Shown in pieces: positions 5,643 to 9,176 of a stretch of DNA of 64,000 nucleotides. Source of the DNA: a candidate division WOR-3 bacterium (GTDB lineage Bacteria; Hydrothermota; Hydrothermia; B15-G9; WFZT01); contig JALUEE010000033.1 in NCBI GenBank assembly GCA_027053075.1, positions 64,001 through 128,000 of the forward strand, given 5' to 3'. The notes beneath the pieces were generated by a model, which did no database searches, was not told the origin of the DNA, and saw nothing but the letters and a program-made list of their open reading frames with translations. Both the position numbers and the translations under genes were made by a program. Positions within the stretch are counted from its first letter, which is position 1, and each line of letters begins with the position of its first letter.

Positions 5643-6021
5643 GGGGTGGTGGTTCGGGTGGTCGCCTCGCGATGACGCGGGGAGGAAAGTCCGAGCTCCA
5701 GAGGGCAGGGTGCTGGGTAATCCCCAGGGGCATCAGGGGAGACCCTGATGCTACGGATAGGGCCACAGAAACGAGACCGCCGAAGGCTTATGCCAGGCAA
5801 GGGTGAAACGGTGGGGTAAGAGCCCACCAGGCTCCAGGGTGACCTGGAGTGCTGGCAACCCCCACCCGGAGCAAGGCCAAACAGGGAGGGTACGGGAGTG
5901 GCCCGCTCCCATGAACTCCCGGGTAGGCCGCAGGGAGGTGTCGGGTAACCGGCACCCAAGACAAATGACCACCGCCCGCCTTACGGCGGGAACAGAACTC
6001 GGCTTATAGAACCACCACCCC
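5643..6021 (+). ncRNA. rnpB: RNase P RNA (bacterial type A)
   Basis: GAGGAAAGTCC, GGGTGAAACGGTGGGGTAAGAGCCCACC, GAGCAAGGCCAAA and ACAGAACTCGGCTTA conserved motifs; P1 pairing GGGGTGGTGGTTC/GAACCACCACCCC; TTGACA at 5609-5614. Confidence 0.98.
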
Positions 6022-6036
6022 CTCCTTTTATCCCTT

Positions 6037-7335
6037 TCAAACGTCTTTTAGCTCACCCTTTAAAAAGGCGTCGTAAGCCGATAGATCAAAGTAACCGTGT
6101 CCCGATAGGTTGAAAGCAATGACAATCTCATCGTCCACTTCTTTTGCAATATCTATTGCAGCCTTAACTGCATGAGCAGATTCGGGAGCAGGCAGGATCC
6201 CTTCAGCCCTTGCAAATTCAATTGCTGCCTGAAATACCTCAGTCTGATGATAGGCACGAGCTTCGATCACACCATCCTTGTGCAATAGACTAACAAGCGG
6301 AGCCATTCCGTGATAGCGAAGACCACCAGCATGAATTGGAGGTGGCACAAATTCATACCCCAGTGTGAACATCTTCAATAGAGGTGTAAGTTTTGCCGTA
6401 TCACCGTAGTCGTAATCATATTTACCTTCTGTCAGAGTAGGACATGCCTTGGGCTCAACTGCCACTACCCTCAGGTCTTTCTTTTCACCCCTGAGCTTGT
6501 CTCCTATAAACGGAAAAGTGAATCCACCAAAGTTTGAACCTCCACCCACGCAGCCAACAAGCACGTCAGGATAGACACCAATTTTCTCAAACTGTTTCTT
6601 TGCCTCAAGTCCAATCACTGTTTGATGAAGGAGAACATGGTCAAGCACCGAGCCAAGAGAATAATTTGTATCCTTTGAATTAGCGGCCTCATAAACAGCT
6701 TCACTAATTGCGATTCCAAGACTGCCGGGGCTGTCCGGGTCCTGCTCAAGAATATGCCTTCCTGGAGGAGTTTCATCGCTTGGGCTTGGAATAATCTGAG
6801 CACCATAACTCTGAATGAGGATTCTTCTGCCGGGTTTTTGAATGTAACTGATCTTCACCATATAAACTTTTACGTCAATGTCGAATAGGGAGCCAGCAAA
6901 GGCAAGGGCGGAGCCCCATTGCCCAGCCCCTGTCTCTGTGGTTAGCCTTGTTACACCTTCCATTTTGTTGTAGTATGCCTGGGCCACTGCAGTGTTTGGC
7001 TTGTGACTGCCCGGAGGAGATGTGCCTTCATACTTGTAAAATATATGTGCCTTTAGTCCTAACCTTTCGCGCAGGTTAGCAGCATAAAATAAAGGGGTGG
7101 GTCTCCACATCTCGTACACTTTATAAACAGGCCCCGGTATCTCAATTGTGGCCTCGAGAGAGACTTCCTGCTCTATAAGCGATTCAGGAAAGATAGCACT
7201 CAGGTCCTCAGGCCTTATGGGCTCCCTCGTCTGAGGATTGAGCGGTGGCTCCGGGAGCCTCGGAAGATCACTTTTTATGTTGTACCATCTTTTAGGTACC
7301 TCTTCAAGATATACTTTTCTCGGGAAATTTGCCAT
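6037..7335 (-). CDS. trpB2: TrpB2-type tryptophan synthase beta (stand-alone PLP enzyme)
   Basis: [12 protein letters not shown] (PLP Lys), [43 protein letters not shown]; no trpA adjacent. Confidence 0.95.
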
Positions 7336-7410
7336 AGTACAACCTCCTTTTTGGGATTTTTATAAGGGGTATGAGTATGTTATCTGGGTAGAATTATTCG
7401 CATGGGGGTA

Positions 7411-7476
7411 CTATTTGCCCCCATGCCACCAGAAGGGCCATGCAAGGAAGGTATAAGAAAAAGTAGACCCAAACAT
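7411..7476 (-). CDS. Putative Trp-rich leader peptide MFGSTFSYTFLAWPFWWHGGK (21 aa)
   Basis: ATG TTT GGG TCT ACT TTT TCT TAT ACC TTC CTT GCA TGG CCC TTC TGG TGG CAT GGG GGC AAA TAG directly upstream of trpB2; three TGG codons, two in tandem; starts 7 nt after a -10 box. Confidence 0.75.
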   Translation of the reverse strand: MFGSTFSYTFLAWPFWWHGGK

Positions 7477-7483
7477 TGGGTTT

Positions 7484-7513
7484 ATCATAATCCCCACCCT
7501 CCGGACCTGTCAA
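7484..7513 (-). promoter_or_regulatory. Promoter for the leader peptide and trpB2
   Basis: TTGACA (7513-7508), 18 nt, TATGAT (7489-7484); predicted +1 coincides with the leader ATG. Confidence 0.7.
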
Positions 7514-7562
7514 ATAGACTTCATCAAAGGAACTTCATCCAATGTGGATTTCTTAAACCCCC

Positions 7563-9176
7563 TCAGGCCACCTTTTTAAGTTCTTTATGCTCTTTCTGGA
7601 CCTCTTCTTTTTCTTCTCTGGGCCTGATTTCGATGTTCACTGGATGGTAATTCTTAAGCTGGGCGTGTTTCATTATTTTCGCTACAGTCTTCTCTTTTTC
7701 TTCATTGCTCATCTTCTTATCTGTAAAAACTACAAGGTCAACAGTGGATGCTTTCTCTTTTTCACCCTTTGCAAGGTGATGAAGCATGTAAATCTCACCA
7801 TCCTTCACCTCTTTCTTTATTCCCTTGATGATTGACGGGATAAATCTTTCAACCCTCTTGATAAAATGCTCACGTTCTTCAAGCTTCCAGTCAACGTAAT
7901 ACCTCATCCTTCTTCCACTTATTGCCTCATAGGCGGCCTCAAATAGGAAGGATATCACTATAAATATTGTCGCGGCTTTCAGGGATGATGGATTTTGCTT
8001 CAAATTGTACCCCACAAGGACAAGAGCGGAGGCAAGGCAGAGAAGGAAGCCAAGCATTGGAAGCCATTTATTGGAATCGGTCAATTTGCTCAGCTTGTAG
8101 TTGGCAAGATTAACAAGACCAAAGACGATCAAAAATCCGAGACTGCCTGCAACTGAAATGTTCTCAAGGTTAGTGGAAAGTGTAAAAATTATCGTGATGA
8201 CTCCAAGGATTACAATTCCCTCGTATCCACCTTTCCAAATCCTTTTTCCGAAGGTTCGGGGCAACTGGCCATATTTTGTAATCAGATAGCTAATTCTTCC
8301 ACTGCCGTAAAGTGTTGCGTTGATAGCCGAAGCAGTGGAAAGCATCGCAGCAATGCCGATAATGATGAATCCAGCTTTACCGAAGAAGGGCTCAGCGGCA
8401 ATGGCAAGGGCATAATCCTTGTATTTAACCACCTGGTCATAGGTGAGATTTCCAACAGCGACGATGGCAATAAGCACGTAAAGAGCAATAACGAATCCAA
8501 CCGAAGCATAAAATGCCTTTGGCAGGGTCTCGACAGGATTCACAATATCCTGGGCCGTATTTGCAATTAGCTCAAATCCTTCGTAGGCAAGGAAAATAAT
8601 TAGCCCACCGGTTATGATATTAAGCATCGGCGCCCAGTTTTGTGGCTCGAGCCGGTCAACCTTAATTGTGATGAATCCAACAACTGCAAATGCAAGCAGA
8701 ATGAGAATTTTGACGAAAACCATAAGGTCCTCAGCCTTACCCGTGACATAAGCACCGAGAAGATTTATCAGGGTAAACACCAGTACAACACCCACGATAA
8801 AAAGCTGCTTGGCAAGGAGAACCTCTTTTCCAAAGAACAGTGCAGCGGAATAGCTTCCAAATGCGTAAGAATAAAGGGACATCATGATGATATAGCTGGA
8901 GAGCAGTAATACGTTTATCCATCCAGAAAAGAGTCCCGTTCCGAAGGCCTTGGTGATAAACTCTATTGTGCCACCTTCACTGGGGAACCTGACTGACAAC
9001 TTCGCATAAGAGTAGGATGTGATTAGAGCAATGAGCCCCGCGACTATAAAAGCTATGAATGCTGCACCATGGGCGAGAAGAATGGTAAGGCCAAGGACGG
9101 CAAAGATACCACCACCTACCATTCCCCCTACACCGATGGAAAACGCTTCGAAAAATCCAATCTTTTTGTGTGTCAT
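7563..9176 (-). CDS. APC family amino acid permease with C-terminal degenerate nucleotidyltransferase-like domain
   Basis: GGMVGGGIF TM1, PSEGG, FLAYEGFE TM6, about 12 TM segments; about 100 aa soluble tail. Confidence 0.9.
   Translation of the reverse strand: MTHKKIGFFEAFSIGVGGMVGGGIFAVLGLTILLAHGAAFIAFIVAGLIALITSYSYAKLSVRFPSEGGTIEFITKAFGTGLFSGWINVLLLSSYIIMMSLYSYAFGSYSAALFFGKEVLLAKQLFIVGVVLVFTLINLLGAYVTGKAEDLMVFVKILILLAFAVVGFITIKVDRLEPQNWAPMLNIITGGLIIFLAYEGFELIANTAQDIVNPVETLPKAFYASVGFVIALYVLIAIVAVGNLTYDQVVKYKDYALAIAAEPFFGKAGFIIIGIAAMLSTASAINATLYGSGRISYLITKYGQLPRTFGKRIWKGGYEGIVILGVITIIFTLSTNLENISVAGSLGFLIVFGLVNLANYKLSKLTDSNKWLPMLGFLLCLASALVLVGYNLKQNPSSLKAATIFIVISFLFEAAYEAISGRRMRYYVDWKLEEREHFIKRVERFIPSIIKGIKKEVKDGEIYMLHHLAKGEKEKASTVDLVVFTDKKMSNEEKEKTVAKIMKHAQLKNYHPVNIEIRPREEKEEVQKEHKELKKVA

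Follow-up and report, generated by a model that had tools for sequence, protein, structure and literature searches.

A conserved tryptophan-codon uORF upstream of a stand-alone trpB2 gene in a WOR-3 bacterium: a very likely starvation attenuator with a possible Rho-dependent output

Introduction

According to the accessible parts of PMC11535334 and PMC1854888, TrpB2 of the Thermotoga type uses indole to make tryptophan, the Km cited in PMC11535334 being below 1 uM, and Pyrococcus horikoshii likewise retains only trpB2; those same parts make no mention of leader-peptide control of TrpB2. A locus in a candidate division WOR-3 bacterium now raises the question of such control. In the window, namely, the 64,000-nucleotide stretch of DNA analyzed here, a short upstream ORF (uORF) with clustered Trp codons precedes a stand-alone trpB2, the product of which resembles the Thermotoga-type enzyme in being encoded alone and in its predicted use of indole. 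It was asked whether the uORF senses tryptophan and, if so, how such sensing would be relayed to trpB2.

Results

The trpB2 gene and its promoter

The window trpB2 gene (7335-6037, minus strand) encodes a 432-residue stand-alone TrpB2-type tryptophan synthase beta homologue. The product scores 654 bits against TIGR01415 (cut-off 519), exceeds the cut-off of PRK12391 as well, and falls below that of TrpB1. A convergently oriented class A RNase P RNA (5646-6022, plus strand; 275 bits) lies downstream, ending 15 nt from the trpB2 stop codon; within this RNA gene, a terminator-like hairpin was noted on the minus strand (5989-5969). Directly upstream of the trpB2 leader is a gene for an APC-family amino-acid permease with a C-terminal extension (7563-9176, minus strand). 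Because, of the clade loci considered below, just that of the closest relative has this permease next to trpB2, the permease is probably not part of the system.

A predicted sigma70-type promoter precedes the uORF. Its -35 box, TTGACA (7513-7508, minus strand), and -10 box, TATGAT (7489-7484, minus strand), are separated by an 18-nt spacer and match the consensus at 11 of 12 positions, with the -10 box lying 7 nt before the uORF ATG, exactly as described in an earlier note on this DNA. The promoter-like site (7513-7484) is the best of five found within 5800-7800, and no terminator-like site was found between it and the upstream permease gene. In the own genus (family f1), the same -35 hexamer is positioned 37 nt before the uORF start in 5/5 loci, while in each of the 12 class leaders inspection by eye revealed a -10-like hexamer lying 7-10 nt 5' of the uORF ATG. 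When 797 promoter-like sites across the genome were considered, 71 gene starts fell 6-9 nt after the -10 box, as compared to one at 1-5 nt. So sharp a peak suggests that many mRNAs in this genome are leaderless. The promoter-to-ATG spacing of the trpB2 leader corresponds to this peak, from which we infer a start site that would render the uORF leaderless.

An additional in-frame ATG was noted inside the -10 box at 7488, with GGAGG found 9 nt upstream (7488-7502, minus strand), a motif shared with the closest relative only. It could serve as a start only in transcripts that read through from the permease gene, where it could yield a 25-codon form of the uORF.

A uORF with clustered tryptophan codons

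The predicted leaderless uORF (7476-7411, minus strand) comprises 21 codons followed by TAG (7413-7411). Trp is encoded by codons 13, 16 and 17 (7440-7438, 7431-7429 and 7428-7426, respectively), such that the clustered-Trp-codon uORF upstream of a Trp gene that trpL-type attenuators need is present here. Just 5' of the first Trp codon is a pyrimidine-rich stretch, termed region 1 (7444-7466, minus strand), predicted to form the 5' half of a split Rho-loading site. The 3' part of region 1 (7452-7444) is also predicted to be able to pair with the trpB2 Shine-Dalgarno sequence. Judging from its presumed footprint, a ribosome stalled on the Trp codons would cover region 1.

Trp content alone is not rare, given that, of the 133 short ORFs in this genome whose starts follow a promoter-like site by 5-9 nt, five contain at least three Trp codons. 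Likewise, the whole leader folds no better than shuffled sequences (z -0.99), and no Rfam family matched the leader at E<=1. With Trp content and fold each being modest when taken alone, it is conservation that places the leader above chance. Another Trp-containing short ORF, found on contig C26 before a lactate-utilisation-like gene, was also considered and looks like a chance occurrence.

The region between the uORF and trpB2

The uORF ends in a hairpin (hairpin H; 7426-7400, minus strand), the 9-bp stem of which joins a G-run (7426-7418) to a C-run (7408-7400), with the uORF stop codon in the loop. H, assigned -18.2 kcal/mol in the window, is present in 7/7 clade leaders. The earlier note had placed a hairpin over the stop codon at the same position, which held, and had given it a 5-nt loop, which did not, ViennaRNA preferring one of 9 nt. 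Covariation within the hairpin, offered in that note as a check, came to a single pair with two-sided change; 65 of 500 shuffles scored as high, meaning that this was not significant.

The effects of ribosome position on folding were modelled with the footprint of a stalled ribosome assumed to reach 9 nt past the A site. In all seven leaders, the calculated probability of H was 0.99-1.0 both in ribosome-free RNA and with a ribosome stalled on the first Trp codon, H being lost only when the ribosome was placed on the last Trp codon or at the stop. Ribosome position did not select among mutually exclusive protector, antiterminator and terminator folds, with H dominating the free and first-Trp-stalled states. 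Because H folds in both of these modelled states, it is probably a structural element and not the switch.

Downstream of H lies a C-rich, G-poor and weakly structured tail (7399-7350, minus strand), predicted to be the 3' half of the Rho-loading site. A recount of this interval yielded 14 C and 2 G, matching the earlier approximate tally, and the excess of C over G is conserved in composition. No intrinsic terminator (i.e., a GC hairpin followed by a U-tract) was found between the uORF and trpB2 in the window, nor by eye in the seven clade leaders; the earlier remark that no U-tract follows the hairpin was likewise borne out, as no terminator-like site was seen 3' of H. The trpB2 Shine-Dalgarno sequence, AGGAGG (7348-7343, minus strand), is invariant in alignment A1. 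As a separate observation, an A/C-rich motif in the tail (7383-7377, minus strand), holding a -10-like hexamer (7382-7377), recurs in 4/5 f1 leaders and may act as a weak promoter within the leader or belong to the Rho site.

Distribution of the leader

TrpB2 was matched at E<=1e-60 in 25 of 64 genomes of the class, with 14 of the 25 matches being at least 64% identical to the query. Seven of these loci, from five genomes of the own genus (f1) and two of family f3, make up the terminator-less clade. In each of the seven, a uORF, hairpin H and a C-rich tail were found, with 70-84 nt separating the uORF stop from the trpB2 start and no U-tract; these seven leaders are from close kin, corresponding to about five independent units. 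The uORFs span 17-26 codons, include two or three Trp codons and place the last Trp 3-4 codons before the stop in 7/7 loci, so that the conserved Trp-codon uORF sought at related trpB2 loci in the earlier note is indeed there throughout the clade. The encoded peptides diverge apart from Trp and a Gly-Gly dictated by the RNA, and the upstream neighbor gene varies outside the closest relative. TrpB2 proteins of f1 and f3 are 77% identical, and the open frame, Trp position, H and spacing were retained between these families. When the 64 class genomes were searched at the DNA level, the leader was found only within the genus.

The other seven loci at or above 64% identity belong to sister families f8 and f9. 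Five have a complete leader (L008, L009 and L011-L013) and, in each case, this consists of a triple-Trp leaderless uORF followed by a hairpin with a U-tract. Of the remaining two, one is cut off such that only the terminator is visible, and one is without upstream sequence. The switch-fold test was valid in 3/5 complete sister leaders, as the RNA cut fell after the terminator in L008 and L013. In the three (L009, L011 and L012), the nascent RNA was predicted to fold into a protector when free and into a G-run/C-run antiterminator with a ribosome on the first Trp codon. Such classical switching indicates that trpB2 is turned on in Trp starvation.

A FastTree phylogeny of 52 TrpB2 proteins (38 from loci and 14 from databases) recovered the terminator-less and terminator-bearing groups each as a clade (support 1.0) and not as sisters, in a tree with weak deep nodes and a long root branch. 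The idea that the terminator-less leaders were derived from the sister attenuators by loss of the terminator is unsupported, given that the groups are not sisters and the deep nodes are weak.

Further afield, no Trp-rich uORF was seen by eye before eight of 11 distant paralogues (42-51% identical), the set for which upstream sequence was fetched. Outside the class, 2 of 16 loci from the phylum passed the uORF rule, while 12 of 80 GTDB loci from other groups passed a loose filter. A Trp-rich uORF, a hairpin and a U-tract were found before trpB2 at L163, L191 and L244 (from KSB1, Zixibacteria and one genome of the same phylum), of which L163 and L191 look by eye like classical attenuators; L172 and L193 also carry Trp-containing uORFs. 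In a scan of metagenome contigs with the hairpin motif, trpB2 was found at none of the 120 matches listed, 40 of which had short flanks only. The hairpin motif alone is not diagnostic, and these matches added nothing to the set of leaders lacking a terminator.

Genomic setting

TrpA, a chorismate-binding TrpE/PabB and TrpC were not found in the genome, which is 95% complete. No TrpD was found, the only TrpD-family match being a nucleoside phosphorylase in the window. TrpB2 is in this sense stand-alone, as the earlier note had it. Among relatives, TrpA exceeded its cut-off in 1 of 41. TRAP, TrpR and T-box elements were not found in five genomes. Given this inventory, TrpB2 is the sole route to Trp and the uORF the sole Trp sensor to have been detected. 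By contrast, Rho was matched in 41/41 genomes (over the cut-off in 39) and NusG was found in 5/5. The amino-acid composition suggests growth near 63 C.

This genome and 5/5 other f1 genomes carry a tryptophanase-family gene that was not distinguished from tyrosine phenol-lyase. No such gene was found in four f3 genomes, including two with the same leader. In the present genome (G000, contig C100), the gene (L036:1366-2724) begins 33 nt after a dihydroorotate-dehydrogenase-like gene, a gap that leaves no room for a tnaC-like leader. The orthologue in genome G004 contains an internal TAG. In other genomes of the class (G012, G017, G018, G023, G024, G028, G029, G032, G033 and G036), tryptophanase-like domains were also noted within open frames of 700-975 residues, which are possible fusions; two such frames hold two matches each.

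The genome provides an internal control in a second leader. A leaderless 20-codon ORF with three Phe and four Tyr codons precedes the DAHP synthase gene (G000:C21:15116-15279, plus strand; L260:417-580) and is followed by protector-like and terminator hairpins, the latter with a U-tract, an arrangement conserved in 6/6 f1 genomes. This is a candidate classical Phe/Tyr attenuator, and the lineage accordingly appears to use leaderless aromatic leader peptides. Since the lineage is able to build intrinsic terminators, their absence at trpB2 is a real difference.

Possible modes of regulation

Considered together, the leader is very likely a Trp-starvation attenuator. How the signal would be relayed is less certain. 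Our tentative preference, at somewhat short of an even chance, is for a ribosome stalled on the Trp codons of the leaderless uORF hiding one half of a split Rho-loading site, the two halves of which are joined by a fixed hairpin. Transcription would start at or beside the uORF ATG. When Trp is ample, translation would proceed to the stop codon in the loop of H and the ribosome would then leave, whereupon H would refold, sequester the G-run and join the pyrimidine-rich uORF segment to the C-rich tail; Rho would load on the exposed, C>G-biased stretch, and transcription would end near the start of trpB2. In Trp shortage, with charged tRNA-Trp scarce, stalling at the first Trp codons would leave the uORF segment hidden beneath the ribosome, so that transcription would proceed into trpB2 and its Shine-Dalgarno sequence would be open to initiation. 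Indole and serine would then be converted to Trp by TrpB2. As H is constant in both states, the difference between them would be the exposure of the pyrimidine-rich uORF segment. A Rut site split by a hairpin resembles lambda tR1.

According to the accessible text of PMC12360218, Rut sites are marked by an excess of C over G and weak structure, with 60-90 nt being optimal and RNAs of about 30 nt still binding or activating Rho. In terms of composition only, a weakly structured C>G stretch of Rut-like length is present in the trpB2 leader. The modelled number of unpaired nucleotides was 68-95 in free RNA and 42-62 in stalled RNA, a drop that the masking of 48-66 nt explains alone. The excess of C over G in the tail was reached by 0.8-8% of 374 background leaders. 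Across the seven leaders, the unpaired YC count was reached by 0-32 of 318 background regions (14 for the window, probably counting itself), whereas for the five terminator-bearing sisters it was reached by 106-278 of 318, a comparison in which the background is a single genome, and the sisters are GC-richer and have a hairpin in the compared stretch. In all seven clade leaders, the unpaired C>G sequence ranked at roughly the top 10% of background or above. Against a Rho-dependent output, the 50-nt tail stays exposed in the modelled stalled state, trpB2 is not C-rich over its first 45 nt and the RNAalifold consensus favors pairing between the uORF and the Shine-Dalgarno sequence, which is strong in family f3.

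This last point bears on the chief competing explanation, namely, translational attenuation, in which the uORF motif at 7452-7444 pairs with the trpB2 Shine-Dalgarno sequence across H in ribosome-free RNA and is covered by the stalled ribosome, freeing the Shine-Dalgarno sequence, with Rho acting only secondarily via polarity. The RNAalifold consensus pairs the corresponding columns, and in five of seven leaders the Shine-Dalgarno sequence was paired with the 5' part of the uORF with a probability of 0.53-0.99. Moreover, at 60 C, stalling lowered the opening energy of the ribosome-binding site (RBS) by 2.0-4.3 kcal/mol in five of six leaders tested, although only f3 stood out from shuffles, with the drop matched by 1 of 60 for L006 and 5 of 60 for L007. 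A precedent is found in Ms5788A, as described in the available portion of bioRxiv 10.1101/834739. In the window itself, however, the opening energy changed by 0.03 kcal/mol, below 58 of 60 shuffles, and the pairing probability was 0.00-0.37. Duplex energies were no better than those of synonymous shuffles in any of the seven leaders (p 0.08-0.71). Nor is the cognate RBS preferred: 318 of 372 others match or surpass it in pairing with the window uORF, and 94 and 53 of 120 permutations are equally good. No sign that the uORF motif and its RBS had co-evolved was seen in this permutation test. Such occlusion is somewhat less likely as the output than Rho shielding; the two are able to act together, and f3 may lean on occlusion. 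Of the earlier proposal that control is Rho-dependent or translational and not through an intrinsic terminator, the missing terminator, the C>G tail and the presence of Rho all stand.

Other explanations fare less well. It is improbable that H itself acts as an mgtA-style switch, with region 1 capturing the G-run during transcription so that the freed C-run completes the Rho site, and a first-Trp stall allowing H to hide it. In L003, L005, L006 and L007, region 1 is indeed predicted to pair with the G-run as long as the C-run has yet to be made, the nascent competing fold in f3 amounts to -26 to -28 kcal/mol, and G-run/C-run pairing serves as the antiterminator in the sister families. Yet at equilibrium H wins in 7/7 leaders, free or stalled, the competing fold in f1 reaches only -9 to -14 kcal/mol as opposed to -18 to -21 for H, and a stall on the last Trp codon would destroy H, giving the wrong sign. 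A leader that is a relic or merely damps expression constitutively, with trpB2 being transcribed by read-through or from a weak internal promoter (the -10-like hexamer at 7382-7377), is quite improbable. The frequency of chance ORFs with at least three Trp codons, the recurrence of the hexamer in f1 and the lack of a terminator-like site between the permease gene and the promoter, all given above, would fit. Against this, two families with differing upstream neighbors both retain the open frame, Trp position, H and spacing, and the hexamer is without a good -35 partner and absent from the promoter scan calls. Finally, tnaC-like induction would have free Trp arrest the ribosome at the stop codon and shield the tail, such that Trp excess would turn trpB2 on and indole set free by tryptophanase would be recaptured. 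The f1 genomes contain the tryptophanase-family gene described above, and the tail adjoins the stop codon. But the uORF contains several Trp codons, its peptide is not conserved apart from Trp and the Gly-Gly imposed by the RNA, the same leader occurs in two f3 genomes where the tryptophanase-family gene was not found, and the sister leaders follow a starvation-on logic, making this reading highly improbable.

Discussion

The trpB2 leader can be compared with several known systems. As seen in the accessible part of PMC1262725, leaders of the E. coli trpL type and the trp leaders of actinobacteria resemble it in that a Trp-synthesis gene is preceded by a short uORF in which Trp codons cluster, and in the predicted sensing of charged tRNA-Trp. 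The present leader differs from the trpL type in having no GC hairpin with U-tract, a predicted leaderless uORF and a stand-alone trpB2 as target, whereas the five complete sister leaders do fit the trpL class. With the same trpB2 being under a classical terminator in the sister families, the class would, if a Rho-dependent output applies here, show interchangeable outputs on one sensor design.

A uORF followed by a weakly structured C>G spacer with no intrinsic terminator is also found in cruR of Bordetella, mgtL and corL of Salmonella, and tnaC and speFL of E. coli, as presented in the available text of PMC12360218. The closest likeness is to cruR, where, according to that text, a stalled ribosome shields a Rut site inside the uORF, as is proposed for the trpB2 leader. 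The signal here would be uncharged tRNA-Trp, unlike the ligand-arrested peptides or Mg2+ that act in those attenuators, and no Trp-starvation case was seen among the uORF-Rho attenuators tabulated in the accessible portion of that source. There, too, tnaC and speFL are described as stalling at the stop codon in ligand excess. The comparison to tnaC-type control drawn in the earlier note consequently fails in sign, because the tnaC stall occurs in Trp excess and turns a catabolic gene on.

Ms5788A, a mycobacterial leaderless polycysteine attenuator (10.1101/834739, as far as available), has in common with the present leader an amino-acid-sensing uORF, leaderless in Ms5788A and predicted to be so here, no terminator, a 70-100 nt spacer and possible pairing between the uORF and the Shine-Dalgarno sequence. 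It differs in that its regulatory codons pair with the Shine-Dalgarno sequence in a very stable fold, whereas the Trp codons of the trpB2 leader do not and pairing in the window is weak. Candidate Rho-dependent cys leaders of Mycobacterium, Propionibacterium and Bifidobacterium (PMC1262725, accessible part) combine an amino-acid-codon uORF with a pyrimidine-rich spacer, the Rho site likewise having been proposed from sequence; these contain Cys instead of Trp codons, and the prediction was called weak by its authors. As the tested mycobacterial case, Ms5788A, proved to be translational in the available account, caution is called for in assigning the trpB2 leader to Rho.

Both uORF-controlled Rho attenuators and leaderless amino-acid attenuators are already-published classes. 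In line with the earlier note, which knew of no description of the arrangement, a literature search that covered few subscription journals returned no description of a leader peptide before a stand-alone trpB2. Such cases may be listed in the comparative attenuator surveys of Lyubetsky and co-workers or those of Merino and Yanofsky. In Corynebacterium diphtheriae, a 'trpB2A' operon is preceded by an attenuator, with that operon including trpA and so not being a stand-alone case (PMC1262725, accessible part).

Should the proposed mechanism prove true, charged tRNA-Trp would join the uORF-mediated signals that control Rho, and the leader would offer a 140-nt, probably thermostable Trp-starvation switch amenable to an easy reporter test, with a matched control in the same genome in the form of the leaderless Phe/Tyr leader and its classical terminator. 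For the organism itself, Trp-starvation control of trpB2 where no other Trp pathway genes were found argues that the in vivo job of TrpB2 is to make Trp from scavenged indole.
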